From NCBI GenBank assembly GCA_963724765.1, contig CAVRVY010000001.1:480001-544000 (forward strand): a DNA stretch of 64,000 bases. Direction: 5' to 3'. Shown here piece after piece: positions 4,150 through 32,425 of the stretch (its first letter is position 1; the number at the start of each line of letters is the position of its first letter). Below the pieces are notes generated by a model, which saw nothing but the letters and a program-made list of their open reading frames with translations, was not told where the DNA came from and did no database searches. Source of the DNA: an uncultured delta proteobacterium (GTDB taxonomy: Bacteria; Desulfobacterota; Binatia; Binatales; Binataceae). Made by a program: the position numbers and the translations under genes.

Positions 4150-4833
4150 ATGACATCGAAGCCTGCCGAATTCCGAGCCGACGAGGCGGCCCTGGTGATC
4201 ATCGACACCCAGGAAAAATGGGTGCCCATGATACCCAACCGGCACACGGTGATTGCCAACATGCGGACCCTGATCAAGTTGGCTCGATGCTTCGAGATGC
4301 CGATCGTGGTGGCGGAGCATCTGCCGTGGGTGATCGGCGAGACGGTGAAGGAGTTGCGCGAGCTCCTGGATTCCAAAACACCAGTCATTAAAAAGATCGT
4401 TTACAATACCTTCGACGATCCGCGCTTCGCCCAGGCGATCGAGCGGACTGGGCGCAAGCAGCTTCTGTTCTGCGGCATCGAGACTCATGTCTGCCTTGGA
4501 CTTCCCGCGCTGGAGGCGGTACGGCGCGGCTACCAGGTTTTCGTGGCGGCGGATTGCACGGGGGCTCAAACGGAGACCGATCGCGATATCGCGTTCCAAC
4601 GTTTCTGGCAGGCGGGGATCGTCCCCACCACCTGGAACACCATAGCTTTCGAAGGGTTGCGCAATATCGAGCTGCACGAAGGCATTCCGGCCAACGCGCG
4701 GTCGCAGGGAGTAAGCAACATTTGGCTCGAGGCGCTGCCTCACGTGCTAAATCAGTTCGCCTATCAGGCCGACAAAGACCCCGCCCGCCAGAGCGCGCCG
4801 CAGGCGTCACCCGGTCGGCGGCGCAGCGCTTAG
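4150..4833 (+). CDS. Isochorismatase family cysteine hydrolase
   Basis: ALVIIDTQ, conserved Lys, GIETHVC catalytic Cys motif; GGAG RBS upstream. Confidence 0.85.
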   Translation: MTSKPAEFRADEAALVIIDTQEKWVPMIPNRHTVIANMRTLIKLARCFEMPIVVAEHLPWVIGETVKELRELLDSKTPVIKKIVYNTFDDPRFAQAIERTGRKQLLFCGIETHVCLGLPALEAVRRGYQVFVAADCTGAQTETDRDIAFQRFWQAGIVPTTWNTIAFEGLRNIELHEGIPANARSQGVSNIWLEALPHVLNQFAYQADKDPARQSAPQASPGRRRSA

Positions 4834-9724: not shown

Positions 9725-9734
9725 GCCTCTCCCC

Positions 9735-11219: not shown

Positions 11220-12520
11220 TTTCGGTCACCGATCACTTGCTGGATTTTGGCGATCGCGATCTCGTGGTCGGCGAGGCTGCGGTAGTACTCTTGGCGGAGG
11301 TTCTGCAAATCGAGAACCGACGAAAGCAGCGTCTGGAAATCGACTTTGCCGACTCGATACGCAGCCATAGCCGAGGCCTCGGACGTTTCAGCCTGCGGAA
11401 TCAGACCGTCGCGATAGATGGACATGATTCGTTCCGAAGTGTGCATAGCGATCAGACTGCTTTCTCCTGCGGAGGAGACTTGCAGTTGCGTTGCACGCGT
11501 CTGCGCGCGGGCGGACTCGGCCTCAAGCGCGGCCTGCTCGATCGCGGGCGTTTGCCTGCGCCAGAAATAGAGCGGAACCTTCGCGCCAAGGCTCAGCATG
11601 TAGTAGTCGCGAAATCCGGGGCCGGTTTTTTGATAGGAATAACCGACGGTGAAATCCGGCCAGTACCCCTGACGCGCGAGCTTCAACGTGTCCGAGCTGC
11701 GTGCTTCCATCGCGCGATCCGCGGCGAGGTCGGGGGAGCCGACGTCGGCCAGCTGCGCGAGCTGCGATGTGCCGAGCTGCAGATGCGTCGCTTCGACCTC
11801 GCCGATGTCGATATTGCGCGAGTCAGAATCGCGCCCGAGGATCTGCTTGAGTTCGAGCTGTTCCTGGTCCTCTTCCTGATGGTGAATCGCGTGCTCCTTC
11901 AGGATCTCGGTGGTCTTAAGCTGCGCTTTGATAAGGTCCTGCTGCAGGCCTTTTCCAACGCGGTAGCGGGTTTCCGCGATCTGCTGGATCTGCCGGAGCT
12001 CCTCCTGATCGCGATCGAGAATCTTGAGCGTCCTTCCGTGATAGAAGAGCTCGTAATAAATCTCTTTGACCTTTTCCTCGACTTCGCGCTCGGCGGCTTC
12101 GTAGCGATACCGGGCGTAGTCGGCGTCTCTTTCCGCTTCGGACTTCTGCAAGCGAAACTTGCCGGGACCCGGGATGTCCTGTGAGGCACCGAAGCCGGTG
12201 TAATAAAAGTCGCTGCTCTCATAACCCGAGAATGGCTGCGGACTTCCGACCGTGAAATGCTGGAGCGACACCTGCGGATCGGGTAGTGTCGCCACCTGGA
12301 TCGGCACGCGAGTGAGCGCCTGCCAGTGCTCTCGCGCGGCGATTACGCCGGGATTGTTAGCAACCGCCTCCCGCACCAGAGCATCGAGGTTCGACGCCGT
12401 ATCTCCGGTTAGAAGCGGAATAGTTTGTGCATTCGCTTGCGATATCGGAGCACATGCGATCGCAACCAGAATCAGGATCACGGCGTGCCGCTTCGCGACA
12501 AGCCGACCAAGTCTCTCCAT
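11216..12520 (-). CDS. TolC/CusC family outer-membrane efflux protein
   Basis: Signal peptide, NNP, LPDP, Q.IPGPGK and YRVGKVDF repeats; overlaps the cusB start. Confidence 0.9.
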   Translation of the reverse strand: MERLGRLVAKRHAVILILVAIACAPISQANAQTIPLLTGDTASNLDALVREAVANNPGVIAAREHWQALTRVPIQVATLPDPQVSLQHFTVGSPQPFSGYESSDFYYTGFGASQDIPGPGKFRLQKSEAERDADYARYRYEAAEREVEEKVKEIYYELFYHGRTLKILDRDQEELRQIQQIAETRYRVGKGLQQDLIKAQLKTTEILKEHAIHHQEEDQEQLELKQILGRDSDSRNIDIGEVEATHLQLGTSQLAQLADVGSPDLAADRAMEARSSDTLKLARQGYWPDFTVGYSYQKTGPGFRDYYMLSLGAKVPLYFWRRQTPAIEQAALEAESARAQTRATQLQVSSAGESSLIAMHTSERIMSIYRDGLIPQAETSEASAMAAYRVGKVDFQTLLSSVLDLQNLRQEYYRSLADHEIAIAKIQQVIGDRK

Positions 12521-13203: not shown

Positions 13204-14297
13204 TTATGAAGACGGGACGATAGTTCCTATTGAGTGGGCGTAAAACTTCCTTTGCATCCAGCGGGCTACGTCCACCAAGCCGATCATCACCGGTACTTCT
13301 ATAAGGGGTCCGATAACCGCGGCGAACGCTGCGCCACTATTAATCCCAAACGTCGAAACGGCAACCGCTATCGCGAGTTCGAAATTGTTTGACGCAGCGG
13401 TAAAAGAAAGTGTCGCAGTCTGCGGATAAGTTGCTCCGGCCGCCCGACTCAGGACGAACGACAATGCAAACATGATCGCGAAATACAGCAGCAGCGGGAC
13501 GGCGATGCGGACCACATCAAACGGAAGTTGGAGGATAGCGGCGCCCTTAATCGAAAACATCACGACGATCGTGAAAAGCAGAAAGATCAAGGTGAGCGGG
13601 CTGATCTTCGGAATGAAGTGCTGCCGGTACCAATCTTTCCCTTTCAAGCTGGTTAGGACTTTCCATGTCGCGAAACCCGCGACGAACGGAACGCCGAGAT
13701 AGATGCCGACGCTTTCAGCGATATCGGCAATCGTTACGTGCACGGTCGCTGCGGTGAGGCCGAGCCATCTGGGAAGGACCGTTATGAACACGAACGCATA
13801 AATCGAAAAAACAGCACTTGGAAAATCGAGTTGAAGGCGACTAAGCCGGCACAGTAATCGGCATCGCCCTCGGCCAAATCGTTCCATACGATGACCATCG
13901 CGATGCAGCGGGCTAGACCGATCAGGATTAGTCCGACCATGTACTCCGGCCGGTCGCGCAGAAAGACGATCGCGAGGCCAAACATCAGGATCGGGCCGAT
14001 GATCCAGTTCTGGACCAGCGAAAGAGTTAAAATCTTCCAGTTCCCGAACACATCACCGAACTCGTCGTAGTTCACCTTCGCGAGCGGCGGATACATCATC
14101 AGGATCAGACCGATCGCAATCGGAACTGAGGTCGTTCCGACAGTCAGGCGATCGAATGTGATCTTCACACCGGGAAAGCTGCTACCGAGCATCACGCCGA
14201 CGGCCATGGCGAGAAAGATCCAGAGCGTCAGATATCTGTCCAAAAAGGACAGTCTTCGCAGCGTCGGCGCGTTCGCAAGCGTTAGAGTGGCGCTCAT
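13204..14297 (-). pseudogene. acr3: ACR3 family arsenite efflux transporter split by a 1-nt deletion (real or sequencing error)
   Basis: [41 protein letters not shown]; adding one T to the T6 run (plus-strand A at 13806-13811) restores QVLFFSIYA. Confidence 0.9.
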
Positions 14298-14537: not shown

Positions 14538-15365
14538 ATGACAAAAGCAAACGTCGTCGCCGCATTGGCCGCGCTCGCACAGGAGACTCGTCTTGATATC
14601 CTCCGCCTTTTGGTCGAGCGAGGTCTCGAAGGAATGCCCGCCGGAGAAATTGGTGAGCGCCTGAAGTTGCCTTCGCCTACCCTGTCATTCCATCTCAATC
14701 AGCTCAGGCACACCGGCCTGGTAACTTCGCGCCGGCAGAGCAGGCTGATCATCTACGGCGCCAAGTTCCGCACGATGAATGGCCTGATCGAATATCTCAC
14801 CGAGAATTGCTGCGCGGGCGAAGCGAGCAATGCAATTCACGGCCGCCCAAAAGGCGTAGCGCCCGGACGCGAATTGAACGTTCTCTTCCTGTGCACCAAC
14901 AACTCCGCTCGCAGCATTATGGCGGAGTGCGCAATGAATCGATGGGGCGGCGGCAAATTTCACGCTTTCAGCGCCGGCAGCAAGCCGCGCGGAACCGTTC
15001 ATCCGATCACCCTCCAGGTGCTGGAAGAACTTAATTACGAGACGGAGGGATTGCGAAGCAAAGACTGGAACGAGTTTGCTCAGCCCGACAGCGCACCCCT
15101 TGATTTCGTTTTTACCCTCTGCGACCGCGCCGCGGCCGAGATCTGCCCGACCTGGCCGGGCCAACCGATAAGAGCGCATTGGGGCGTTCAGGATCCCGTT
15201 GTAGTCGCCGATACGAACGGGGCGAAGCGAAAAGCGTTCGTCAAGGTTTACGCCGAGTTGGAGCAGCGCATCAGAATCTTCACTGCTTTGCCCATCGAGA
15301 CGCTCGAGCGTTTCGCCCTCGAACGCTGGGTGACCGAACTCGGCAAATTGAATCTGGCTGCGTGA
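14538..15365 (+). CDS. arsR-arsC: ArsR regulator fused to an LMWP-type (thioredoxin-dependent) arsenate reductase
   Basis: [19 protein letters not shown] (C-terminal vicinal-Cys ArsR type); then [16 protein letters not shown]....CP and HWG..DP. Confidence 0.92.
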
Positions 15366-16429
15366 TGGAGACAGGAGCGGCCTTGCCTGTACGCGTTGGC
15401 ATTAACGGGTTTGGACGGATGGGTCGGCTCGCATTGCGCGCCGCGTTCGACAACCCCCAGATTCAGATTGTCCATGTCAACGAGTTGAAAGGCGGCCCCG
15501 GGACCGCCGCTCACCTGCTCGAATTCGATAGCGTGCATGGCCGCTGGCGCGTGCCGATAGCACCGGAAGCGCACGGGCTCAAAATAAACGGCGATCGCGT
15601 CGGCTACAGCAACTTCAACGCTCCAGGCGCAGTGCCGTGGGACCAGGCCGGGATCGAAATCGTTCTCGAATGTTCGGGCAAGTTCCTTACTCCGGAGGCG
15701 TTGCAGCCGTATTTCCAGCGGGGTGTCCGCAAAGTGGTGGTAGCCGCGCCGGTAAAGCAGGGCGCGCTGAATGTCGTGATGGGCGTCAACGATCAGTTGT
15801 ATGACCCTGAACGGCACCACATAGTCACTGCCGCCTCGTGCACCACCAATTGCCTGGCCCCCGTGGTCAAAGTCATCCAGCAAAAACTCGGCATCCGGCA
15901 CGGCATCATCACCACCATCCACGACGTGACCAATACCCAAACGGTGGTGGACCGGCCTCACAAGGATCTGCGGCGGGCGCGGTCTGCGCTGATGTCGCTG
16001 GTGCCGACTACTACCGGCTCGGCAACCGCCATCGGTCTCATTTACCCAGAGCTGCAAGGGAAACTTAACGGCCTGGCGATTCGTGTTCCCCTGCTGAATG
16101 CTTCGCTGACCGATTGCGTTTTCGAGGTCGCGCGATCGACCACCGCGGCAGAGGTCAACAAATGCCTGCAGGAGGCGGCGGAGGGGGAACTCCGAGGCAT
16201 CCTGGGTTTCGAGGAACGTCCGCTGGTCTCGGTCGACTACGTGAACGACCCACGATCCTCGATCGTCGATGGCCCTTCGACCATGGTCGTCGACGGCACG
16301 CAAGTCAAAGTTCTGGCTTGGTACGACAACGAGTGGGGCTACGTAAATCGGCTGGTCGAATTGGCGACGAAGGTCGCCGCCAGCTTGTCTGCGATGCGGC
16401 GGAGAGCTGCAAGTTGTTTGGGACAGTGA
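15365..16429 (+). CDS. gap: ArsJ-associated glyceraldehyde-3-phosphate dehydrogenase
   Basis: [29 protein letters not shown] variant, WYDNEWG; TGATG overlap with arsC; directly upstream of arsJ. Confidence 0.92.
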
Positions 16430-17673
16430 GAAATGCCGTACGCAATTATGCCCTGGTCACTGGAGCCTACTGGGGCTTCACGCTCACCGACGGCGCTCTT
16501 AGAATGCTGGTGCTCTTGCACTTCGACCGGCTTGGATACAGCGCGGTCGAGATTGCTTTCCTGTTTCTGTTCTACGAATTTTTCGGCATTGTCACGAACC
16601 TGCTTGGTGGCTGGATAGCCGCGCGCTCCGGATTGAAAGTCACCCTGTACGGCGGTTTGCTTCTGCAAATCGTCGCGTTGATCATGCTCGCCTACCTGCA
16701 GCCGGCCTGGGCTCGATTGACCTCGGTCGCGTATGTCATGGCGGCACAGGCGCTCTCCGGAATCGCCAAGGACCTGACCAAGATGAGCGCCAAGAGCGCC
16801 ATCAAAGTCGTGGTCCCGCAAGGCGAGGACGGGGCCCTCTTCAAATGGGTGGCGCGGCTGACCGGATCCAAGAATGCGCTCAAGGGAGCCGGCTTCTTCC
16901 TCGGGGCGGCCCTTCTTACCGCACTTGGTTTTGTTGGGTCGCTCCTCGCGATGGCCGTGGGTCTCGCGATCGTGCTGCTCGGCACCGTGGCCGCGCTTCC
17001 GAGCGCAATGGGCAAGGCGAAATCGAAGATCAAGTTCACGACTTTGTTTTCTAAGAGCGCCGCGGTGAATTGGCTTTCCGCCGCGCGGCTGTTTTTGTTC
17101 TCTGCGCGCGATGTCTGGTTCGTCGTAGGGTTGCCGGTGTTCCTGGCCTCGACGCTTGGTTGGAGCTTCATGCAAGTCGGGGCCTTCGTCGCCGCGTGGT
17201 TCGTTGGCTACGGCATGATCCAGGCAATCGTGCCTGAAATTCTCCGTCAATTGGGCGCGCGTCAGGGCGTGACCGGAGACACAGCGCGCCTCTGGGCCTT
17301 CGTATTGACCGTCATTCCCGCTGCTTTGGCGTCGGCACTCGAGTTTGGCGCGCGGCCGGCTCCGGCACTTATGATCGGGCTCGGGATCTTCATGATCGTC
17401 TTTGCGATCAATTCCGCCGTGCACTCGTATCTTATTCTTGCCTACTCCGAAGACGATGAAGTCGCGACGAACGTGGGCTTCTATTACATGGCCAACGCCG
17501 GCGGCAGACTTCTGGGCACGCTGCTCTCCGGTGTGATTTTCGAAGCCTATGGATTTACCGGTTGTCTGCTGGCGTCGGGTTTGCTGGTGCTGGCTGCCGG
17601 TCTTTTGTCCTTCAATTTGCCTCGCGTCCGAGCAATTCCCCTGACCGTCAAATTGAAAGAGGCTGACGCCTGA
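16426..17673 (+). CDS. arsJ: Organoarsenical efflux MFS transporter ArsJ
   Basis: [61 protein letters not shown]; GTGA overlap with gap. Confidence 0.93.
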
Positions 17674-17753
17674 GCTGAGGTCACGCTCCGTAAACATCGG
17701 ACCTGGAAGCTCGCGTCAGGTCCTCCAAGACCAAGCGATCGACGGAGAAGTTC

Positions 17754-18926
17754 GTGAAAAGTGAAGCTGCATTGAAAATAACAACTGCGGTTTTCCTGCT
17801 CGCTCTGTTGCCTACGTCAATACCTATTGCCGCAGCACAAACGGATCGGCTGGTGATAAATGGCGATGGCTCAACCTTCGCCTATCCAATGTACAGCAAA
17901 TGGATCGAGGAATATCAGAAGGACAATCCGGCGGTGCATTTCAGTTACGTTTCGAACGGCTCGGGCGCCGGCATCCACGACGTTATGCTGGGCACAGTCG
18001 ACTTTGCCGGCACTGACGGTCCGCTGAACAAAACACAGATGTTGGACTTCAGCACTCATCGGAACTGCGAGGTTCTCCACTTCCCGACCGCCCTGGGAGC
18101 GGATGTTCCCATATACAATATCCCGGGAGTGATTCAGGAGCTCAATTTCACTCCTCAGGCCCTCGCGGGCATATATCTCGGAACCATTACTAAATGGAAT
18201 GATCCCGAGATTGCCAAACCCAATCCGAACGTATCGCTGCCTGCCAACGATATTGTAGTTGTCCATCGGCAAGACGGAAGCGGAACCACCTACGTGTGGA
18301 CCGACTATCTAACCAAAGTCAGCTCGGATTGGCAGCAGCGTGTAGGAACCGGCATCTCGGTCATGTGGCCGGTTGGGAACGCGGCTAAGGGCAACGAAGG
18401 AGTTGTCCAGGTGGTCGCACACACGCCCTATTCGATCGGGTATTCCGAGCTCACGTATGCGGTCCGGAACCGGTTGCTCTACGGGAGCGTAGCCAACCGC
18501 AGTAGGCAATTCATCAAGGCCGATCTGGCGAGCGTCACTGCGGCTGCGGCGGGCGTCGCGGACAAGATGCCTGCGGATTTTCGCGTCTCGATTACCGACG
18601 CGCCCGGTGAAGAAGCCTACCCCATCTCGAGCTTCACCTGGATGCTGATACCTTCCGTTATAACCGACTCGGCGAAGCGCACTGCAATCATAAAGTTTCT
18701 GCGGTGGAGCTTGACCAAAGGCCAGGATTACCTCGAACCCCTGTCCTATGCCCGACTTCCCAGCGCCGTAATCGTCAAGGAAGAGAAGGCGATCGACAGA
18801 ATAAAATCGTCGAGCGGAAGGGAAGCAGCTCAAGAGAGTGCGAAAGTTGTTGCCACGCGAGGCGTCATTCAGAGGTACCACGACGCGATAGCGGTCTGCG
18901 ACATCAGAAATGCCAGTTTTGACTAA
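17754..18926 (+). CDS. pstS: Phosphate ABC transporter substrate-binding protein PstS (no pstCAB adjacent)
   Basis: G.GSTF.YP, GSGAG, DFAGTD, HR.DGSGTT, GNEGV and YPI..FTW motifs; signal peptide. Confidence 0.9.
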   Translation: MKSEAALKITTAVFLLALLPTSIPIAAAQTDRLVINGDGSTFAYPMYSKWIEEYQKDNPAVHFSYVSNGSGAGIHDVMLGTVDFAGTDGPLNKTQMLDFSTHRNCEVLHFPTALGADVPIYNIPGVIQELNFTPQALAGIYLGTITKWNDPEIAKPNPNVSLPANDIVVVHRQDGSGTTYVWTDYLTKVSSDWQQRVGTGISVMWPVGNAAKGNEGVVQVVAHTPYSIGYSELTYAVRNRLLYGSVANRSRQFIKADLASVTAAAAGVADKMPADFRVSITDAPGEEAYPISSFTWMLIPSVITDSAKRTAIIKFLRWSLTKGQDYLEPLSYARLPSAVIVKEEKAIDRIKSSSGREAAQESAKVVATRGVIQRYHDAIAVCDIRNASFD

Positions 18927-19022
18927 GAAGGCGCTCGCTTGAAAAGCCCGGCGCCCGGTGGACTCGCGGTTTCGGTTCAGAGTTCGACGCAAAAGTTCGA
19001 TCAAACCAATGAGAGAAAATTC

Positions 19023-19220
19023 ATGAAAGCCAGAACCCCAAATCTGAGTCAGAAAGATTGGGAACTCTGCTGCACCTATCTCGAGGAAATGAAGCAAAAG
19101 GGCCTTTCGACCCACGAACCATGGGAATTTGAACTTGAGGCCTGGGCGGCGGACCCAAATCGTCATCCGAGGGGATCCACGATCGCCAAGCTGCGCCTCC
19201 GCTTCTCCAACCGTGCGTGA
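19023..19220 (+). CDS. Small hypothetical protein with a vicinal Cys pair
   Basis: 65-aa ORF MKARTPNLSQKDWELCCTY... between pstS and arsR2; GAGAG upstream. Confidence 0.4.
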   Translation: MKARTPNLSQKDWELCCTYLEEMKQKGLSTHEPWEFELEAWAADPNRHPRGSTIAKLRLRFSNRA

Positions 19221-19337
19221 TGCAGAAATTCTCAACGCTGCTGCTCTCCCCACTGACACGGTACAACACTCACTAGGTTCGCGCTGGCACGACGGGTCAT
19301 CGTCTCGTGGCCGCCGCAGAAACTTGATCTGTCCCAC

Positions 19338-19357
19338 ATTTCTATGATACTAGAAAT
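19338..19357. promoter_or_regulatory. Probable ArsR operator palindrome ATTTCTA-TGATAC-TAGAAAT
   Basis: Perfect 7-bp arms ending 6 nt upstream of the arsR2 ATG; similar in size and composition to the 14518 site. Confidence 0.65.
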
Positions 19358-19363
19358 ATCGTA

Positions 19364-19762
19364 ATGAAGCGGCGAATCGAACAGTTCAGCGCCCTAGGCC
19401 AGGAGGACCGCCTGGAGATCTTCCGCCTGCTAGTGCGCGCGGGGCCGCAGGGCAACTGCGTCGACGAGATCAAGCGCCGGCTCAAGATGGCGGGCTCCAC
19501 CCTTTCCCATCATCTCGACGCGCTGACTCGCTCCGGCCTGCTCGCAGCACGGCGCTCCGGTCGCTTCATCTTCTACGCCGTCAACTGGCGCGAGACTGGG
19601 AACCTGATTCGCTTTCTCACCGAGGATTGTTGCGCCGAGATGCACACAAGGCTCGCTCAGACCGCTGGCTCACAGCCGCCAGATAGACGTGGCACCAATC
19701 AAGATTCGTGTTGCGAAGAGGATCAATCGGCCGCCACAAGCACCATGCGCATGCGGCCCTAA
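19364..19762 (+). CDS. arsR: ArsR/SmtB family regulator (second copy)
   Basis: ALGQE.RL.IFRLLV.AG, STLSHHL, FL.EDCC, plus a second C-terminal CC. Confidence 0.9.
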   Translation: MKRRIEQFSALGQEDRLEIFRLLVRAGPQGNCVDEIKRRLKMAGSTLSHHLDALTRSGLLAARRSGRFIFYAVNWRETGNLIRFLTEDCCAEMHTRLAQTAGSQPPDRRGTNQDSCCEEDQSAATSTMRMRP

Positions 19763-19782
19763 ACTGCTGGGAGGCGAGAAAA

Positions 19783-20601
19783 ATGGGAGACCAGCCCACG
19801 ATAAAGGAACAGGTCAGGGAAAATTACGCGCGCGCCGCGCGCCGCGTCGTCAACCAGGAAAGTACCTCGTGCTGTGGCACGGCCGCTCCCGCGGGAAATC
19901 CGATCACCTCGAATCTGTACGCGGACGGCGAAACCGCCGCGCTTCCGGCTCAGGCGGTCGCCGCGTCGCTCGGCTGCGGTAATCCGACTGCGCTCGCCGA
20001 GCTTCGGCCGGGCGATACGGTGCTCGACCTCGGCTCCGGCGGCGGCATCGACGTGCTGCTCTCCGCGCGCCGCGTCGGCCCCACCGGCAAAGCCTACGGC
20101 CTCGACATGACCGACGAAATGCTTGCCCTGGCGCGCGAGAACCAGCGCAAGGCGGGGGCGCAAAACGTCGAGTTCCTGAAGGGCGAGATCGAGAACATCC
20201 CGCTGCCCGATAACTCGGTGGACGTGATCATTTCCAACTGTGTGATCAATCTTTCGGGCGACAAGGATCGCGTGCTGGCCGAAGCGTTTCGCGTGCTGCG
20301 CCCCGGGGGCCGCTTCGCGGTCTCGGACGTGGTAGTGCGCGGCGAGGTCCCGGCCGCCATCCGCCGCAGCGTGGAGTTGTGGATCGGATGCGTCGCCGGA
20401 GCGCTGGAAGAATCGGAGTACCGGGCGAAATTGAGCAGCGCCGGATTTGAGCAGGTCAAGGTCGAGCCGACGCGCATCTATCGAGCGTCCGACGCCATGG
20501 AGTTTTTCAGCCGAGCTGACCTCGACGTCGAAACAATCGCGCCTCTCGTCGACGGCAAATTCATGAGCGCCTTCGTGCGCGCTCGCAAACCAATCTCGTA
20601 G
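19783..20601 (+). CDS. arsM: Arsenite S-adenosylmethionine methyltransferase
   Basis: N-terminal [36 protein letters not shown]; GGGAGG RBS. Confidence 0.93.
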
Positions 20602-20742
20602 GGCTGCTCCATGGCAACGTCCGAAATATCGAGACGGTCTACTGCTGCCGCATGCCGCGTCGGGGAAATTTTCTTTGGCGACCCTGCATCGCGGCGAAGT
20701 GAGCAAACTCATGCAGAACAATCACGAATCTGAGCTGTTGGT
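20386..20742 (+). repeat. Copy 1 of a 357-bp direct repeat (arsM 3' end, intergenic region, sulfurtransferase start)
   Basis: Aligns without gaps to 22437-22793 (offset 2051); about 26 mismatches by hand count. Confidence 0.9.
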
Positions 20743-21544
20743 GACGACGGACTGGTTGGCGGCGCATCTTGACGATCTCGACATCCGTGTCGTTGATACG
20801 CGCAAGGGAGATGGCTACGCGATAGCGCACATGCCTGGCGCGGTCCGCTATCCGGCGCCCATAACCCCATTTCTCAAGGAAAACGGTCGCGTGCCGAGCG
20901 CCGAAAAGTTCGCCGGGATCATGTCAGAGATAGGAGTCGGCGACGAGAATCTCGTTGTCGCGTACGACGATGGAAACAACCTTTTCGCGGCGCGTCTCTG
21001 GTGGGCGCTAAATTATTATGGACATCGCAGAGTGAAGCTGGTGGATGGAGGGTGGGATCTCTGGTTATCAGAAGGTCGCCCCGTCACGGATGCGCCAGAA
21101 AGCGCGAGTCCCGCTCGCTTCACTCCGAAGATCGACGACCACTGTATTGCCGAAGGGGAAACGGTCACAGCGGCGATCGGAAATCCAGCTTGCGGTATTC
21201 TCGACGTTAGATCGGACAAGGAGTGGACCGGCGCCGATCCGATGGGCACGAAGCGCGGCGGACACATTCCAGGCGCGCTTCACTTGGAGTGGCGCGAGAC
21301 GATCGATCAGGCGAGCAAGCGCTTCAAACCCGCGCCGGTGTTGCGACAGATGTTCGCGAAGGCAGGGCTCTCGCCGGAAAAGGAAGTTATCACGTACTGC
21401 CAGGGCGGCATCCGGGCGGCTCACACCGCATTCGCCCTGCGGTTGGCCGGCTACGACCACGTCCGAAACTACGAGCGTTCCTGGGCCGAATGGGGCAACC
21501 GCGAGGACCTTCCGATAGAGCGCCCGCAAGGAGCCGCGAAGTGA
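20711..21544 (+). CDS. Two-domain rhodanese / mercaptopyruvate-type sulfurtransferase
   Basis: LVTTDWL, H(M/I)PGA twice, AARLWW, DGG, active loop [13 protein letters not shown]. Confidence 0.9.
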
Positions 21545-22389
21545 GGGGGCTGCTCTTCCTGTGCGTCCAGAACTCCGCCCGGAGCCAGATGGCGGAAGGG
21601 CTAGCGCGCAGGATTTTCGAAGATGCCGTGCGCGTACAAAGCGCCGGCTCGCGACCGGCCGGAGTCGATTCGCTCGCGGTCGCTGCGATGGCGGAGATTG
21701 GGATCGACATTTCCGCTCAGACATCAAAATCGGTCGAGAGCATCGATCCGCATAGCGTCGATACGGTGATCACGCTTTGCGCCGGGGAAGTATGTCCGGC
21801 CTTCTTAGGCAATGCTCGGCGGCTGCATTAGTCGATTGGGGACCCGGCTGCAGCAGGTCCCTCGCTTAGCGATGGCGGTCGGCTCCCAAAGTTTAGGGTC
21901 GCTCGGGATCAGATCAAAGCACGGCTTGAGGTGCTGGCTGCGTTGCGTGATGTTCCACTTGGTCCGGCCGCCGTGGAATTTCATTCCAGTATCCGAGTGC
22001 ACGATCTGGCCCGCAGCGCGCGGTTCTATTCCTGGTTGCTGGGGACTCAGCCGCGCGAATGGACCCATCGCTACGTGACCTTCATCTGCCCCGAACTCAG
22101 ACTTAACTTTGTACTGTTGGTATCGGACGGGAAGGAGCTCCATCACGACACGCTGTACCATTTCGGCATCGCGCTGTCGGACAGGCGTGCCGTAATCGCG
22201 GCCTATCACCGCGCACGCGAGGTAGGATTGCACATCGAAAAACCGGCTCGCACTACGTGGACTGGGACCCCGCTGCATGAGCTCTGGCTCGAAGATCCTG
22301 ATGGCAACCTGATCGAACTCTACGCCCGTCTGACCGAAGAAGAGATCGCTGAACGCCCGGCCGACGCACAACCTGTGTGGCTGGCATGA
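21541..22389 (+). CDS. ArsC arsenate reductase fused in frame to a VOC (ArsI/CadI-like) domain; one in-frame TAG at 21829-21831
   Basis: [19 protein letters not shown]...VCP, RLH*SIGDP (Trp expected), F...RDQIKAR; then H..IRV.DL..S..FY, YHFG and [12 protein letters not shown], all in one frame. Confidence 0.8.
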
Positions 22390-22436
22390 TCCAGGGACGA
22401 TTCGTTGACAACTGAGATTGAGCAAATGGAAAGGTT

Positions 22437-22793
22437 GGATGTGTCGCCGGAGCGCTGGAAGAGTCGGAGTACCGCGCGAAATTGATCAGCGCCGGATTTG
22501 AACAGGTCGACCTGGAGCCGCCGCGCATCTATCGCCCGGCCGACGCCAGAGGGTTTTTCACCCGTGCGAACCTCGACGTCGAAAAAATCGCGCCTCTGCT
22601 CGACGGCAAATTCATGAGCGCCTTCGTGCGCGCTCGCAAACCAATCTCGTAGGGCTGCTCCATCGCAACGTCCGAAATATCGAGACGGTCTACTGCTGCC
22701 GCATGCCGCGTCGGGGAAATTCTCTTTGGCGACCCTACATCGCGGCGAAGTGAGCAAACTCATGCAGAACAATCACGAATCTGAGCTGTTGGT
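22437..22793 (+). repeat. Copy 2 of the 357-bp repeat; remnant of a second arsM-sulfurtransferase junction
   Basis: Diverged copy of 20386-20742, truncated at both ends. Confidence 0.9.
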
Positions 22794-22794
22794 T

Positions 22795-22913
22795 GTCTCA
22801 CTCGACAAGGACTACCGAGACTTGCCCCGATCCAAGCACCCAGGATCGGAAGAGTCGTCGAAATCGCGAAGGTCGCTGGCCTGCATCACCGCTACAAACG
22901 GCTCGCTGTCTGA
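22795..22913 (+). mobile_element. C-terminal remnant of an IS-like integrase-core transposase
   Basis: Frameshifted SLDKD...PIQAPRIGRVVEIAKVAGLHHRYKRLAV* resembles the ...GGLHHRY.R.A terminus of this family. Confidence 0.6.
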
Positions 22914-22985
22914 CTTGTACTAGCTCCGCTAACCAACGGCGGCTTGCAGCCCATACGCCGGTACACACAAAAACGGTCCAGCGCC

Positions 22986-23768
22986 TTAGAAGGTCCATCC
23001 GACAATCGACTTGAGAAACACCCCGTTACTCGCGCGCGTCACCCCGAGTCCGACGCCGAGATTCAGTTCAAGTTGCGGAATGAAATAGAAATTCAGAGTC
23101 GGCACGATGAAATGCTGCTGCTCCTGCGGCTTTTCCAGCGGCTGAATAGGTCCCATGTCGCCGTAGTACTCGAGCGCCGGCGAAACCCAGCGGTTCAGGT
23201 CATACAGGATCTCGCCTGACGGATCGAATTGAAACCCGTGATGCGTCTGCGGGCCGCTGAACGGCTTTATCAACGGAAAGTCCGCGACCACGCGAAATGG
23301 CTTGTAGGTCGCACCGACGATCGGCCGCAGCTCAAGCGTCAGAGGATTTTCCTCAGCCGCGCGGCGCATGTAGTCGAGCTCGATATTGCCGCCGAACTGC
23401 ACTGGCCACTCGAAGGTCTGCGGGATACCGAAATGAACCTTCGTGCGCGAACCCGAGTATTCGTAATCTCCGTTCGAGAGCTTCGCTGTGGCGAAATACT
23501 GGCCGACCTCGAGCCAGCGCAGGACGCCATATGTGGCCTCGAGCGTCTCGTGTATCTGATGCACGTCCATCTGGCTTTTCGCCAACTGTCCGGTCGCGGT
23601 CGAGGTCGTGTTGGAATGGAGTTCGAGCGTCAGATGACCGACCGGCGCGGTATCGGTGTCGTAAATCTGGATTTCATAGAAGTCGATCGCCTGCAATGGA
23701 CGCGCGGCCGCCAGCATCGCGACGATGCACATCGAGAACGTGAAAACATGGCGGAAAAAATTCGTCAT
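22986..23768 (-). CDS. Putative outer-membrane beta-barrel protein
   Basis: Signal peptide, DFYEIQIY, alternating hydrophobic strands, C-terminal aromatic GWTF. Confidence 0.7.
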   Translation of the reverse strand: MTNFFRHVFTFSMCIVAMLAAARPLQAIDFYEIQIYDTDTAPVGHLTLELHSNTTSTATGQLAKSQMDVHQIHETLEATYGVLRWLEVGQYFATAKLSNGDYEYSGSRTKVHFGIPQTFEWPVQFGGNIELDYMRRAAEENPLTLELRPIVGATYKPFRVVADFPLIKPFSGPQTHHGFQFDPSGEILYDLNRWVSPALEYYGDMGPIQPLEKPQEQQHFIVPTLNFYFIPQLELNLGVGLGVTRASNGVFLKSIVGWTF

Positions 23769-24426: not shown

Positions 24427-25832
24427 ATGAGTAAAAGTGCTCTCACCCTTGGTCACCTTAACATCCGGCTCGTATTGGGGCTGGCGCTGTTCCTACGCGC
24501 ACTACTCCCGATATCAGGCTATCTGTACACACGTGACGCTACCATCTTCTACACGCCTGACACCGCCACTTATATTGTTCCGGCCCGCGAGTTAGTCACC
24601 CATCACCGCTTTTTCTCCGATGGGGCACCGGAAGTCATTCGAACCCCGGGCTATCCTTTGCTGCTTACGGCTGGCCTGCTGTTGGATCGCTTGGAACTCG
24701 TTACAGTCACGCTCCAACTTTTACTTAGTTGCTTCACGTATTCATGGTATATCGGACAGCCTGTCTGTTCTTCGAGCGCGATGACATAGCTATCATTGCC
24801 GCGGTGCTGTATGCGATAGATCCGCTTTCCATATTGTTCGCAAGCCTACTCGCCCCTGAAACTCTTTTTACCGCAATAGTCATGGTCGCAGTCTACTACC
24901 TTGTGAAGTACCTGAGGCGGCAATCACCGGGGGACCTGCTTGCTTCGGCCGGCGCTCTGGCCGCCTCAGTTTATGTCCGACCGATCGGCTACTTTTTGCC
25001 ACTGATAATCGCTGCCGGGCTGGCAACATGGACGTTGATCACTTATGGGCAAAACAAGCTCGGCCTCCTAGCTCCCAGCTGTGCTTTCGTTATTGTTTCC
25101 CTGGGGCTCACCGGTCTCTGGCAGGTTCGGAACAAGGTCGAGTCAGGGTACTCTGGCTTCTCAGCCATCGCTAGCGACAATATGTACTTCATCGGAGCCG
25201 CATCGGTCCTGGCCGCCCAACAGCATGTGCCGTATTACGGGATGAGGGACCGGCTAGGCTATCAGAACCCGCGCGTTTATTTCCATGACCATCCTGAACA
25301 GAAGACCTGGTCTGTAGCGCGGAGAAGCAATTATATGAATCGGGCCGCCGAGCACATTTTGCTGGACAGCTCCTTGACTTATACTTGGATTTATCTCGAT
25401 GGCCTCCTTCGAGGCACCTTCGATCCCGCTTCTACCGAATTTCTCAGATTCTTCGACCTCTATCCTAAGGAGGGCGGTCTTCTGACAGTTGAGGTCGACA
25501 AAGGCATAGTCCCAACTATCGAAGCGCTTTACGCTAATCCACTCCTGTTTTGGAGCACGGCCATAATGCTCCCGCTGCTGCTGATATACCTGTCGTGTGC
25601 GTGCGTAACACTCTGCAGCCGGCTGATACTGAACCCTGCCATTCTCGCCGTTTCTTTAATAATGGGCTACTATATGGCTATTGCGGGTGGCCCCGGCGAC
25701 TGGGCCCGATTCCGTCATCCGGCAATGCCTATTATCTGCATGCTGGCTGGGTATGGTTCACGTGTGGCGCGGAGCCGCTGGGAACCCCCGTTTGCCGCCT
25801 GGTGTCGCATGTGTTTTCAGCAATCTCATTAG
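24427..25832 (+). pseudogene. ArnT/PMT-like (GT-C) membrane glycosyltransferase split by a 1-nt deletion near 24738
   Basis: PD...Y, RTPGYPL, E.LF, YVRP, RFR.P; adding one G restores CFTVFMVYRT. Confidence 0.75.
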
Positions 25833-28056: not shown

Positions 28057-29034
28057 CTAGGCGGATGGCATTTGCTGAATTGCGGTCAATTCGCGGGCCG
28101 CGCGTGCTAAGAAAAGCAGTCCAATCAATCCGTTACAGAACATAAAAGTGAAGTGTGCAGCGAGACTGTACGCCAGAATCCTCGCCTCCGGGGCACTCCC
28201 CGAAAAGAAGAGAATCCAGGCCGCCTGACTGGTACCCAGATGTGCCGCTGCGATGGGCAGCGCCGCTGCAAGAAATACGAGCGGGAGAAACAGCACCAAC
28301 TTCATGAGTGGAATGGTGATTCCGTATAATGCAAGAGCGAAGTGCTGTGTTAAAAGCGACGCAAGGAAACCGGGAGCCTTTATGCCAAGGACAACGGCGT
28401 AGTCCCATGGTCGGGCGGCTAGAAACGTGCCGGCCACAGCACCAAGCTTGCTGTCCTCAATCCATGCTCGCACCCGATTGTTCCGCCTTGCAAGCGCAAA
28501 AACACCGATGATGCTAGCGAGCGTCAACCAGGCGACAACATACGCAATTCGCAGGAAATGGACTATTTCCAGTTGTCGCGGTGAGTTAGGATGATAGAAC
28601 ACTACGCCTAGCGTCGAGAACAGGAAAAGCTGATAGATCTCCATCAGCCCGATAAGCAGAATTGAGCTGAGTATTTGGAGGAATGGAACTCCGGCCTTGC
28701 GATGCAAATACCAGGTAACGCCGCCCTGCCCGAGGTTGGTGTTGATCATTGAGAGCAGGTACATGCTGGCGCGGATCGGCATGATATCGCGAAGTCGCAT
28801 CGGGCTATTGAAGCGGCGAACGACCCACGTCAGGCAGAGAGAATCGATAATCCAATAGAAGGCACAAAACGGGAGAAAGACAACGAAGAACTTCAGCACC
28901 GGCGCCTGGGCGAGCGCCGCCGCGACATCGGCGACGGGTATGAGCCAGAAGATGAATGCAAAAATAAGTAGCGTCCCGATGTATGGAAGAGCCCTTCTCC
29001 CCAGACGTGACACAGGTGACGCAACAAACGCCAT
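28057..29034 (-). CDS. Lysylphosphatidylglycerol-synthase-TM (flippase-like, UPF0104) membrane protein
   Basis: About 8 TM helices; N.N.GQGG and LP....LG motifs. Confidence 0.65.
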   Translation of the reverse strand: MAFVASPVSRLGRRALPYIGTLLIFAFIFWLIPVADVAAALAQAPVLKFFVVFLPFCAFYWIIDSLCLTWVVRRFNSPMRLRDIMPIRASMYLLSMINTNLGQGGVTWYLHRKAGVPFLQILSSILLIGLMEIYQLFLFSTLGVVFYHPNSPRQLEIVHFLRIAYVVAWLTLASIIGVFALARRNNRVRAWIEDSKLGAVAGTFLAARPWDYAVVLGIKAPGFLASLLTQHFALALYGITIPLMKLVLFLPLVFLAAALPIAAAHLGTSQAAWILFFSGSAPEARILAYSLAAHFTFMFCNGLIGLLFLARAARELTAIQQMPSA

Positions 29035-29349
29035 ACTATTGGACCTCAGACGGGGCTAATAATGCGCTGGATCATTATCTGACATGAGCATGGCTGCAAT
29101 GCGATTCAAGTCGCCACTCAACGCCTTGGCGAGGTGCTTGGGTTCGCAGTGAAACACGGCGACGCGCTGACGGCGGATCCGCAAATTCGGGAGGTGCTGG
29201 GCACTTCCTGGTTCGACTGCCACTCGACCCAGCAGCTCAACTGTCCCGCCCGCCCTCACTTCCAAGGTTTACTCAATTGAGCGGGAGTCTCGCGCCGCAC
29301 CCGTTACGAAGCTGCTTCCTCTCTGTGCCTGTGCTCTTGGAGTCACGAT

Positions 29350-30108
29350 TCATCGCGGCGGTACAATAATGGTCACCTTCCGCGCCTGTGGACCCATTGC
29401 CCATGTGATGTAGCCGCTCGTTTCGACCTTGACTTGAACCAAGTCGGAAACCTTGAACAGGTGCGGCGGAATTGTCCGGAGCACTGGCAGCATATAAGCA
29501 AAAATTGAGAACATCCTCGGTGAAGCCCCCGTCTCGGGCTCTCTGGTTGAGTTTATGATCTGAGTTGGTGACAGCACGTTCGGACTTTCGACACCCCATT
29601 CCACGTAAGGGACGAGAAAATCACATGCCGCTGTTACCTGATCGCCCAATAGATGACCGTGTACCTGGATCGTTATCTCGTGGAGGCTCCCTTGCACCTC
29701 CATCAGACCCGTTATCTGTCCGTAAAAATTATTTTGCGAGTCGCGAATACCCTGGATCTTCTGCGGGATGAAAGTGATTTCGGGATAGCGGGCGACATCG
29801 AGCACGCCATTCCTTATGATGGCATCGCGCAACTGTTCTTTGCTGTCCTCGCTGGCGGCGTCTATTTCGATTTTACCGGTGGCATTGCCAGTTTCGGGAT
29901 CGACGCGAATGTTTCCGCTTTTGAGTGCGAACCGGCCGTTGGTCGTGTGGAGGTTTCCTAGTAGCGTGAAATCGATATTGGTGTGCGCAGGATCGAGTTG
30001 AACAATGTCGGTCTGCGGCAGGGCATTCGATTGCGCATGGGCAATCGGAATCGGCTGTGCATTCAGGGCTGCGACTGCAGCCGCAAAAACATAGGATCTC
30101 AACATCAT
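29350..30108 (-). CDS. YceI family lipid/polyisoprenoid-binding periplasmic protein
   Basis: Signal peptide, LDPAHT.I.F, G.F, RD, LD..RYP.I.F motifs; C-terminal extension. Confidence 0.8.
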   Translation of the reverse strand: MMLRSYVFAAAVAALNAQPIPIAHAQSNALPQTDIVQLDPAHTNIDFTLLGNLHTTNGRFALKSGNIRVDPETGNATGKIEIDAASEDSKEQLRDAIIRNGVLDVARYPEITFIPQKIQGIRDSQNNFYGQITGLMEVQGSLHEITIQVHGHLLGDQVTAACDFLVPYVEWGVESPNVLSPTQIINSTREPETGASPRMFSIFAYMLPVLRTIPPHLFKVSDLVQVKVETSGYITWAMGPQARKVTIIVPPR

Positions 30109-30240
30109 AGCGCTTCGCCTATAACTCCGGGAGTTCAACTGTTGAACCTGAGCAGTCTCCCAAAACCAACCCGCGATCTCGTTAATGTCGATCGAAATTG
30201 CAGAAATGACAGAAATGATCCTCCTGACCATCTACAACTC

Positions 30241-31371
30241 CTATCTCTGAGCGGGACTCACGCAAACGAAATGGCGAGCAAATCTGGCGATAACACCAGG
30301 CGGAATGGCGCTTAGCGATAATGCCGCCGTATGAACGCCGAGCATGAACCCGAACATCTGCGATTGCGAATTCAGTGCATGTAACACCCGACGCCGTAGC
30401 CCCGCCCGAGCACCGACGCAGAGCATTAGGTTGGCCATGCGTCTAGGCACACGAGTGATATGCCGGTGAACAATCTGATATTTCGCAAGATCCTGCTGCT
30501 CGACGGCCTCGGCGAGCGTGAGGGCCTGGCGGAACCCAAGTGAAAGACCTTCGCCTGTAAGAGCGTCGACCGACCCGGAGGCGTCCCCGACTAGCGCGAC
30601 TCGGTCGCGGACGACAGAACGTATCTCGCTGGACCCGGAAACTGCTCCCCGGACGGAACTGGTCGCACGCGCACCCCTTAGGCGTCGACAAAGCTCCGGA
30701 AAGAGCTCGATCAGTTCCGCCATAGGTCCGCAATGGGCGCTTGCGAAAACTGAAATGCACACTTCGTTCCAGGCTATGGGTGTCACAACCGCCTGCCCCA
30801 GGTTATGCCAATGCACTTCGACGAAATCGGTCCACGGCCTCGCCCGGAAATGCTGCCGAAGTCCGATTCTGCGGCGAGCGTTCGAAGGTAGTCGAAATCC
30901 TGCCCATCGCCTGACGCGCGATTCGCGGCCATCTGCGCCCACGATCCATCGACATGGCACATTTCGTCCGGCTATCCGGACCCCGGCGCTGCTCACGCCA
31001 GTAACGGGCTCACCCCAGCGCGTGACGACGCCAGCTTCCTCAGCTCGAAGGGCCAACATTTGATGAAGGACGGGGCGTCGAATACCGAGACCATGTCCCA
31101 CAACTGCAGGAAAATAAGCTTCGGCGGATAATCCCGCATCTATAAAGCGGATGCCATAAAAGGGAAGAGCGTTACTATTACTAGTGTCTACTTGTACACC
31201 TAGGACACGAAGGGCCGAGACTCCTTCAGGCATAACGCCTTCGCCACAGGGCTTGTCGATCGGCGGCTGAGCCTTATCTGCGACGAGTACTTCGAGGCCA
31301 CGCTGGCGAGCTGCGATCGCAGCGGCAAGTCCGACGGGGCCGCCGCCGACAACGACAAGGTCCGGTGCCAT
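30241..31371 (-). CDS. FAD-dependent oxidoreductase/monooxygenase of a type III PKS operon
   Basis: VVGGGPVG, DKPCGEG, GADG..S.VR and LVGDASG.VDALTGEG motifs. Confidence 0.88.
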   Translation of the reverse strand: MAPDLVVVGGGPVGLAAAIAARQRGLEVLVADKAQPPIDKPCGEGVMPEGVSALRVLGVQVDTSNSNALPFYGIRFIDAGLSAEAYFPAVVGHGLGIRRPVLHQMLALRAEEAGVVTRWGEPVTGVSSAGVRIAGRNVPCRWIVGADGRESRVRRWAGFRLPSNARRRIGLRQHFRARPWTDFVEVHWHNLGQAVVTPIAWNEVCISVFASAHCGPMAELIELFPELCRRLRGARATSSVRGAVSGSSEIRSVVRDRVALVGDASGSVDALTGEGLSLGFRQALTLAEAVEQQDLAKYQIVHRHITRVPRRMANLMLCVGARAGLRRRVLHALNSQSQMFGFMLGVHTAALSLSAIPPGVIARFARHFVCVSPAQR

Positions 31372-31375
31372 CTAC

Positions 31376-32425
31376 TTACCAGCGAATCAGAATCAATTCG
31401 GAGCAGAACCCCGGGCCCATCGCCGCAAGCAGACCGAGCGTACCCGGCTTAGGCCGACAGGACGTCATCGTCTCTTCCAGGACGAGCAACACGGACGCCG
31501 ACGATATGTTGCCGTGTCGGCGCAGACAGTCCCACGACAGCTTTAAGTCATGGTCGGAAAGACCCAGCGCGCGTTCGACCGCCTCCAAAATCTTTGGCCC
31601 GCCCGTATGAATAACCCAGTTGCCGATATCGCTCCGGCTCAGGGCAAAGTCAGCCAGAAAGCGATCGAGGTCGGCACCTAAGTGCTGCTGAATAAGCTCC
31701 GGTAGTTTCGGAGACAAAACGATCCGGAAACCCTTTTCAGAGATGTCCCAGCCCATGATCTCCTCGGAATTGGGGTAGAAGACGGAGCGAGTTCCGAGAA
31801 TTGCGGGTCCGACGGACGGCCTCTCCGCGCCAACGACGATTACCGCTGCAGCACCATCGCCAAAGAGACCTGTCGAGATCAGATTTGGAGTCGACACGTC
31901 GTCGCGCTGCAGCGTCAGCGAACAGACCTCGACCGCCAGCAGCGCGGCGGCTTGTGTGGGATAAGCCCTCACGTAGTCAGCCGCGCGGGTTAGGCCAGTC
32001 GCTCCACCGACACAGCCCAGGCCAAAGATTGGCGTCCGCTTGATATCGGGCCGCAGTGTCATTCGGTTGATCAGGCGCGCGTCAAGTGACGGGCTCGCCA
32101 CTCCAGTGATCGAAACGACGAAGAGGGCATCGAGGTCGCGGCGCGTCACACCGGCGCGCTCCAATGCGCCATCTACCGCCTTTTCTCCTAGTTGCTCGGC
32201 GATCTCGATCCAGGCGCAGTTGGACTGCCCCCACGTTTCGAAGCGCTTGTAGTCTGCGAGTGAGAAGGCAAAATTGCGATAGTCGACACCGGTCCGCGAA
32301 TGCAGGCGTGTGAGAAGTTCGGGGCACTGGAGCTTCTCACCCCAATGAGCCCGCAGAGCGTCGGTGATTAAGTATTGATGGTAGCGATGAGATGGAAACG
32401 CGCCTGCTGCTCCAGCGATCTTCAT
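31376..32425 (-). CDS. Type III polyketide synthase (alkylresorcinol/alkylpyrone type)
   Basis: Catalytic triad GLGCVGG, HTGG, GNISS; LFGDGAAA; MGPGFCSE. Confidence 0.93.
   Translation of the reverse strand: MKIAGAAGAFPSHRYHQYLITDALRAHWGEKLQCPELLTRLHSRTGVDYRNFAFSLADYKRFETWGQSNCAWIEIAEQLGEKAVDGALERAGVTRRDLDALFVVSITGVASPSLDARLINRMTLRPDIKRTPIFGLGCVGGATGLTRAADYVRAYPTQAAALLAVEVCSLTLQRDDVSTPNLISTGLFGDGAAAVIVVGAERPSVGPAILGTRSVFYPNSEEIMGWDISEKGFRIVLSPKLPELIQQHLGADLDRFLADFALSRSDIGNWVIHTGGPKILEAVERALGLSDHDLKLSWDCLRRHGNISSASVLLVLEETMTSCRPKPGTLGLLAAMGPGFCSELILIRW

Follow-up and report, generated by a model that had tools for sequence, protein, structure and literature searches.

What does a domain that resembles the carbon-arsenic (C-As) lyase ArsI do in a protein that places it behind an arsenate reductase domain and lacks the Cys-Cys pair of ArsI? 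The question is raised by a 64,000-nucleotide stretch of DNA from an uncultured delta proteobacterium (assembly GCA_963724765.1, contig CAVRVY010000001.1, positions 480,001 to 544,000), here called the window and numbered from its first letter, in which two open reading frames (ORFs) of an ars island follow each other in the same frame. They are one arsC-VOC gene of 282 codons plus stop (21541-22389, forward strand) in the ars island of a Candidatus (Ca.) Binataceae-like bacterium, and a TAG in place of the Trp97 codon, between RRLH and SIGDP, is the only break in its frame. The first-pass annotation, made from the window alone, had joined the two ORFs and placed the missing C-terminus of ArsC in the gap between them, and both claims hold: the stretch between the ORF ending at 21831 and the ORF starting at 21931 codes for SIGDP...F...RDQIKAR, and the read-through chain matches Pfam LMWPc across the stop (residues 5-131) and Glyoxalase behind it (residues 148-260). 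That annotation had also made the fusion hinge on the existence of full-length homologues. A homologue search returned 5012 proteins at E <= 0.001 among 7999 candidates scored, and the 120 listed, to which counts out of 120 refer below, all carry both domains at 64-90% identity, the closest named ones belonging to Ca. Binataceae. A scan of GTDB species genomes with the patterns WTHRY[AV]TF and LHHDTLYH gave 318 matches, of which 287 were confirmed; counts of loci refer to the best 80 of these 287.

Trp stands at position 97 in all 120 listed intact homologues, and codon 97 is TGG in all 76 loci that span it (the other 4 of the 80 do not), with no internal stop in the aligned stretch; the nearest locus (L001), 89% identical over 2.6 kb, likewise has TGG. 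TAG is a working stop in this organism, since arsM ends in it, as do 16 of 60 long ORFs in the window. At 136 conserved columns the window gene deviates three times, against a homologue mean of 3.0 (sd 2.2, n=120), which gives no sign of prolonged decay after the lesion. The stop is compatible with a recent nonsense mutation, the island being in decay, as well as with an error in base calling; unless it is such an error, the window copy would yield a truncated ArsC. A programmed TAG, read through by a suppressor or as pyrrolysine, or splitting the gene deliberately with a restart at the GTG at 21931, is extremely unlikely: this GTG does open a 152-codon VOC ORF, and the VOC domain also occurs in stand-alone forms, but the TAG is not conserved in any of the 76 spanning relatives, the same codon closes arsM and the long ORFs, a scan of the 64-kb window found no tRNA gene, and the stop removes Asp101 and the last helix of ArsC. 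The window's own gene is broken, and its value is that of a pointer to a family.

This family is a widespread arsenic-resistance gene that has apparently gone unstudied so far. The 80 loci belong to Pseudomonadota (42), Myxococcota (23), unplaced Deltaproteobacteria (7), Binatota (3) and Bdellovibrionota (3), two being unassigned, and the link to arsenic drawn in the first-pass annotation stands, as a core ars gene (acr3, arsA, arsD, arsH, arsM, Grx-arsC or arsJ) is found in 68 of them, in 67 at a distance of no more than 1.5 kb; of the 48 loci with at least 5 kb on both sides, 45 have one. Among the neighbours are acr3 (60 of 80 loci), arsA (32), an OsmC-like gene (28), arsD (19), USP (17), Cys-Cys arsI (15), rhodanese (14), arsH (11), arsM (9) and arsJ (5). 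Two 650-residue chains (P0392, P0393) join Acr3, of different types, to ArsC and VOC. Long upstream ORFs (>330 aa) in 17 loci were considered as further such triple fusions and rejected, having no match to Acr3 or another marker outside VOC, and the four that were printed are off-frame readings in GC-rich DNA. On plasmids the Cys-free VOC type occurs in 3 of 30 matching records; a Sulfuriferula plasmid has it as a stand-alone gene in an arsR-arsC-arsD-arsA-VOC-CBS-transporter transposon, and the Methylocella plasmid gene has no ars neighbours annotated. Common as the gene is in well-studied ars operons, it is currently annotated merely as 'VOC family protein' or 'arsenate reductase', and neither an ArsC-VOC fusion nor a Cys-free relative of ArsI was found described in the literature covered, which takes in little of the subscription journals that hold most ArsI work; PMC5258700, PMC9582695 and bioRxiv 10.64898/2026.08.27.747368 contributed nothing about the family. 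The gene is testable now in cultured carriers, namely Kordiimonas marina (L012), Vreelandella vilamensis (L051), Pelagibius litoralis (L058), Marinobacter (L055), Minicystis rosea (P0077), Methylocella tundrae and Sulfuriferula AH1.

A Cys-free clade beside ArsI and CadI

The putative metal ligands of the VOC domain, read as His/His/Glu in the first-pass annotation, are conserved throughout the family: His148 and His207 are present in 120/120 and Glu259 in 119/120 listed homologues (one gap). The absence of a Cys-Cys pair, also noted there, extends to the VOC domains of all 120, the lone CC sitting at residue 7. In the alignment to ArsI, W240 and T241 occupy the positions of Cys98 and Cys99; of the TTWTG that had been contrasted with TTCCY in ArsI, the Trp is invariant (120/120), whereas the Thr that follows it in the window is a variable position (Arg in 65, Met in 31, Leu in 11 and Lys in 8 of 120), and the family motif of the lid reads R-T-T-W-[R/M/L/K]-G-T-P-L-H-E-L-W. 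Beyond what had been seen earlier, ArsI Gln103 is replaced by Leu245 and Lys105 by Glu247, each in 120/120. Tyr178 (113/120) aligns with ArsI Tyr38, the equivalent of ArsI Trp107 is also kept, and His176, His201, Asp203 and His246 are further conserved. According to a review, Cys-to-Ser substitutions in ArsI abolish binding and activity and K105A/R/E abolish catalysis, Lys105 being required for O2 activation and forming a second shell with Gln103, and the enzyme is active as a monomer (PMC12607644); the same metal ligands of ArsI are given elsewhere (PMC6138428).

Comparison with solved structures and known families placed the domain close to ArsI. Its best solved relative is T. curvata ArsI (E 2e-8), ahead of glyoxalase I (5e-3); Foldseek gave a TM of ~0.8 over the target, and the top look-alikes in the ESM Atlas are ArsI/CadI clusters (0.95-0.96). 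The ArsI model NF041414, with a cut-off of 116 bits, is missed by the window (54.6 bits) and by nine further members (39-58). Among the 150 library representatives listed, 65 span the VOC domain, 43 of them of Cys-Cys type, 16 of Cys-free type and 6 other. A tree of 55 rows unites all 23 Cys-free rows in a single clade (99/95) and groups this clade with 22 Cys-Cys ArsI/CadI rows (98/97); its outgroup of nine rows (GloA, FosA3, six plasmid VOC domains and P0378) is thin, two rows being long branches, and its ingroup rows were chosen by similarity to the query. Clustering with non-arsenic glyoxalases, which had been named in advance as what would undo the arsenic reading, was not seen, the domain falling in with ArsI/CadI and apart from the sampled rows of glyoxalase I, FosA and dioxygenases. 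Among the rows sampled, the VOC domain is a separate, tightly conserved, Cys-free clade that is sister to ArsI/CadI.

It is not a member of ArsI/CadI: the Cys pair, Lys105 and Gln103 are missing, the NF041414 cut-off is not reached, and a canonical Cys-Cys arsI shares the locus in 15 of 80 cases, a coexistence that argues for a non-redundant job. We conclude that the Cys-free VOC domain probably does a job other than ArsI's in arsenic detoxification. A substrate different from that of ArsI, as already proposed in the first-pass annotation with a pentavalent or thio-arsenical as candidates, is likely. Screening with Pfam00903 as a proxy for arsI (as in PMC6514093) would count Cys-free VOC genes as demethylases. 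In Burkholderiales ars clusters, 'glo' genes without assignment have been listed, and the excerpt of that source leaves their Cys pair unstated (PMC3954881). Two side groups emerged around the clade: P0262, P0264 and P0268 are deep-branching stand-alone members with Gln at position 247, and P0331, P0338 and P0280 have Cys-Cys ArsI-type domains with a longer C-terminal domain (318-359 aa) or a tandem duplicate (431 aa).

The ArsC half, the predicted dimer and the ArsC cysteines

By homology, the N-terminal domain of the fusion is likely an arsenate reductase. C8, R14, C80, C85 and D101 are retained in 117-120 of the 120 listed fusions (in the window D101 lies beyond the TAG), the family profile finds the B. 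subtilis and pI258 ArsC proteins first (E 7e-32), and these are also the top Foldseek matches of the AlphaFold model of an intact homologue (pLDDT 90, pTM 0.80). The domain scores 105 bits with TIGR02691 (cut-off 174) and also misses the cut-offs of PRK13530 and TIGR02689. Reductase activity stays likely despite the C-X4-C spacing of the resolving cysteines, because a short spacing occurs also in Cg_ArsC1' (C162, C166; PMC6514093).

Structure prediction with two copies of an intact homologue and Fe gave a homodimer score of 0.93, the best of three controls reaching 0.00; among proteins of solved structure the dimer mark is reached by 20 of 30 pairs and 1 of 23 single chains, counts that are only roughly applicable here. 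The runs agree in at least 99% of contacts, with a pLDDT of at least 92. In the predicted dimer, residues 210-211 of one chain form a strand pair with 146-148 of the other, and each VOC domain is packed against Trp97 and helix 123-135 of the partner. For intact members a homodimer with swapped domains is predicted, whose metal site would combine His148 from one chain with His207 and Glu259 from the other. GloI and FosA have the same swapped strand arrangement, and the high dimer score may for this reason stem from likeness to solved VOC dimers, which tells against the prediction. Shorter homologues with a decayed N-domain retain the Trp97-equivalent strand and the last helix, as would be explained by the packing of both on the partner VOC.

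The decayed forms also bear on whether the VOC domain depends on the cysteines of ArsC. The first-pass annotation had proposed that ArsC reduces a pentavalent organoarsenical and that its three Cys offer the resulting trivalent species to the iron of VOC, coupling reduction to C-As cleavage. Retention of all three Cys in 71 of 80 loci, their conservation in the listed fusions and the tight packing of the two domains in the model (pTM 0.80) would suit such a hand-over. Yet among the 120 shorter homologues listed (58 with a decayed N-domain, 40 ArsC fragments, 22 short), CX5R or CX4C is found in none of the 58 decayed N-domains, 28 of which have no Cys whatever, and in 56/56 aligned rows without the catalytic Cys of ArsC the triad and the equivalents of Glu247, Trp240 and Arg237 are invariant. 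One locus (L023) has lost all three ArsC Cys in an intact frame and two (L031, L032) the third, and the VOC site is kept in stand-alone genes as well. Thus the VOC site is maintained without ArsC thiols, though most members keep them, and channelling from the ArsC cysteines is disfavoured. The Lys105 position is Glu, the VOC domain is attached at the C-terminal end of the last ArsC helix, a pole that by its fold would point away from the P-loop, and Cys8, Cys80 and Cys85 are absent from the listed inter-chain contacts, where an unlisted residue is merely uncertain. We regard the proposal as very improbable.

In the profile alignment the decayed N-domain covers ArsC residues 32-135, with a score dominated by VOC, and a wide structure search returned receiver-like matches (Z ~7) and no ArsC among the 50 rows listed. 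The ars operon around one decayed form (L066) contains two separate copies of arsC, and the stand-alone VOC gene of Sulfuriferula also stands beside arsC. Five members from Bdellovibrionota and Thioalkalivibrio (P0209, P0237, P0239, L066, L077; 238-245 residues) have a Cys-free N-domain with a conserved motif of its own (NWDLLFSVLGPND).

Candidate functions of the VOC domain

An ArsI metal site that is kept while the substrate-binding and activating residues are replaced points to a reaction beyond those assigned in microbial arsenic cycling. The reading that we favour, tentatively and at somewhat less than an even chance, is a Cys-independent metalloenzyme that would bind an anionic arsenical and feed inorganic arsenic to ArsC and Acr3. 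The metal and a basic, hydroxyl-bearing lid (Lys234, Arg237, Thr238, Thr239, Arg/Lys241) would bind the arsenic oxyanion without thiols; candidate substrates are a pentavalent methylarsenical, a thioarsenate or an arsenate ester, from which breakage of a C-As, As-S or As-O bond would free inorganic arsenic, to be reduced by the fused or a neighbouring ArsC and exported by Acr3/ArsA. VOC would act before ArsC, the two being coupled by proximity with no covalent hand-over. We infer an oxyanion from a metal site that persists, from the loss of the thiols and of the O2-activating Lys, and from the appearance of Lys234, Arg237, Thr238 and Thr239 in the lid; averaged over 19 clade rows the lid carries a charge of +0.7, versus -1.4 over 22 ArsI/CadI rows. 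K234, T238, E247 and W249 align with K93, S97, S101 and Y103 of FosA3, and Lys90 of FosA has a role towards the phosphonate. Ser94, Ser98 and Tyr100, at matching positions, belong to the K+/fosfomycin site of FosA (PMC11933065); in this distant alignment the triad and Lys/Thr are matched, Ser98 is Glu, Tyr100 is Trp, and no match to Arg119 was found. The favoured function is further supported by the separate arsC in operons where ArsC is decayed or absent (L066 and Sulfuriferula) and by the two single-chain Acr3-ArsC-VOC proteins.

Several points weigh against it. The difference in lid charge is small and the window's own loop has a net charge of 0, the FosA mapping rests on a distant alignment, and each triple fusion was seen on one contig and may be a read-through artefact. 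In 12 of the 80 loci, mostly short or truncated ones but including three with long flanks, no core ars gene is seen, and the context counts are not independent events because kin share operons; conservation counts at residues inside the two search patterns are biased, the loci having been retrieved by them. Retention of the three Cys in most loci argues that the ArsC domain itself is under selection there. What the substrate is cannot be read from the neighbours, since acr3 and arsC accompany canonical arsI too, as in the B. subtilis operon arsR-arsI-acr3-arsC (PMC12607644), and the OsmC-like, USP and rhodanese neighbours fit a general stress role equally well.

A non-catalytic role, as a His-rich As/Sb/Cd-binding protein or as a scaffold for ArsC dimerisation in the manner of drug-binding VOC proteins, would account for the additional conserved His176, His201, Asp203 and His246 and for the persistence of the dimer-contact strand and last helix in decayed N-domains, and the mitomycin-binding MRD is among the Foldseek matches. 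We consider it unlikely, as stand-alone VOC forms have no ArsC to scaffold, the residues of the lid and second shell show the invariance of an enzyme site, and binders of As(III) normally use thiols. Stress repair on a non-arsenic substrate, in which electrophiles arising from arsenic stress would be cleared by an isomerase resembling glyoxalases or epimerases, or by a thiol transferase of FosA type, Glu247 and Glu259 serving as a pair of carboxylates, seems to us no likelier than such a binding role. The predicted swapped dimer is that of GloI and FosA, whereas ArsI is active as a monomer (PMC12607644), the OsmC-like, USP, rhodanese and AhpD neighbours would suit it, and a wide structural search ties ArsI (Z 12.0, rmsd 3.8, 110 aligned) with a Mn-bound glyoxalase (Z 11.3). 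However, Glu56 of E. coli GloA aligns with Asn189, so that the four-ligand GloI site is missing, ArsI is much closer than GloI by sequence and the tree joins the domain to ArsI/CadI, and its being fused to ArsC and Acr3 speaks for a role in the arsenic pathway proper.

Two further possibilities involve C-As cleavage. The clade could be a second kind of C-As cleaving enzyme that would act on pentavalent mono- and dimethylated arsenic (MAs(V), DMAs(V)) directly, without thiols or prior reduction to toxic MAs(III), and pass inorganic arsenic to the fused ArsC and Acr3; we hold this to be rather improbable, and if true it would amount to a one-operon demethylation route across Pseudomonadota, Myxococcota, Binatota and Bdellovibrionota. 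A dioxygenase-type lyase for trivalent organoarsenicals, with arsenic held by His, Tyr or Trp instead of Cys, would agree with the retained triad and equivalents of Tyr38 and Trp107 and with ArsI being the nearest family. It is very unlikely, given that Cys-to-Ser and K105A/R/E kill ArsI (PMC12607644), that the clade has Glu at the latter position in 120/120, and that canonical arsI stands alongside in 15 of 80 loci.

The surrounding island and likeness to known systems

The features of the gene and of the window are collected in Table 1. The split of acr3 is due to one base lost in a T run near 13806-13810, against 4/4 relatives compared, and is an assembly error or a pseudogene. The remnant copy behind the fusion is ~80-85% alike at its start and near-identical at its end, breaks off abruptly and is missing after the gene in L001; a plain assembly duplicate was rejected as unlikely because the copy and the arsM end of the window itself share only 92% identity. 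L001 has a Cys-Cys arsI between arsR and arsM (3934-4827), which the window lacks at 19656-19799, and L002 likewise carries arsI at this place, along with a sigZ-like gene. A promoter and terminator scan of 19000-23200 gave nothing above shuffled sequences. In related loci the rhodanese gene usually lies just upstream of the fusion, a sulfurtransferase that may point to thioarsenic chemistry, and a small OsmC-like gene often adjoins it (for example L062:3888-4286). A SigZ-like sigma factor (12 loci), a class II glutamine amidotransferase (6) and tandem USP genes (17) recur beside the operons, with examples at L046:8150-8776, L039:9242-10111 and L070:7374-8306.

Table 1. Features of the arsC-VOC gene and its surroundings in the window
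Feature	Position	Strand	Evidence or remark
arsC-VOC fusion gene	21541..22389	+	282 codons, interrupted at codon 97; GTG start overlaps TGA of upstream rhodanese gene
LMW-phosphatase-fold ArsC domain, residues 1-135	21541..21945	+	PF01451, E 2.8e-16
Cys8-X5-Arg14 loop; Cys80-X4-Cys85; Asp101-Pro102	Cys8 codon 21562-21564; Cys80 to Cys85 21778-21795
In-frame TAG	21829..21831	+	at invariant Trp97 codon
VOC domain, Cys-free ArsI-sister clade	21964..22386	+	PF00903; NF041414 below cut-off
Putative metal triad	His148 21982-21984; His207 22159-22161; Glu259 22315-22317	+
Active-site lid K234-P-A-R-T-T-W240-T-G-T-P-L-H-E247	22240..22281	+	alignment to ArsI
arsR, head of arsM-rhodanese-fusion unit	19364..19762	+	family-model match
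arsM, arsenite methyltransferase	19783..20601	+	NF008823 369 bits, above cut-off; ends in TAG
Two-domain rhodanese / mercaptopyruvate-sulfurtransferase-like gene	20675..21544	+	domain matches; overlaps fusion start
arsR-arsC fusion, ArsJ-associated gapdh, arsJ, pstS	14538..18926	+	domain/family matches
acr3 arsenite exporter, split	13204..14297	-	both halves match TIGR00832
Remnant second copy: arsM 3' end, spacer, rhodanese start	22437..22793	+	92% identical to 20386-20685
CusCBA-like RND metal-efflux genes	6554-12520	-	adjoin ars island
PMT_2-family membrane glycosyltransferase	24427-25832	+	apparently split over two overlapping ORFs; possible further frameshift
Small cluster: type III polyketide synthase, FAD-dependent oxidoreductase, YceI, lysylphosphatidylglycerol-synthase-like genes	28057-32425	-

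With the ArsC proteins of pI258 and B. subtilis the fusion shares the C-X5-R loop, two resolving Cys and Asp-Pro, at 37-40% identity in the structure matches; it differs in the spacing of the resolving Cys (C-X4-C versus C-X6-C in the pI258 type) and in being joined to VOC, decayed in some lineages and truncated by TAG in the window. Like the known ArsR-ArsC, Acr3-ArsC, AqpS-ArsC and ArsN-ArsC fusions, it links ArsC to another ars component, and its partner, a Cys-free VOC domain, is not among the fusions in the excerpts of these sources (PMC6205960, PMC6514093). Glyoxalase I and FosA share with it the predicted domain-swapped dimer, and FosA also a similar three-ligand site and the lid Lys/Thr aligned with K93/S97 of FosA3, but the four ligands of glyoxalase I (His5, Glu56, His74, Glu122) are not all found, GloA and FosA fall outside the clade in the tree, and family members score no more than 26 bits with the NCBIfam models for FosA and GloA. 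By sequence, structure and tree the nearest family is that of ArsI (T. curvata, PDB 5C4P/5CB9/6XCK; Bacillus YqcK) and CadI, with which the VOC domain has in common the two-module VOC fold, a His/Gln-His-Glu triad, the equivalents of Tyr38 and Trp107 and a location in ars operons. It differs from them, at ~30% identity, in lacking Cys98/Cys99, in having Leu for Gln103, Glu for Lys105 and a basic lid, in being usually placed behind ArsC, in its predicted swapped dimer and in its ability to coexist with canonical arsI. The VOC domain of the fusion may resemble ArsI/CadI in using its His-His-Glu metal site on an arsenical.

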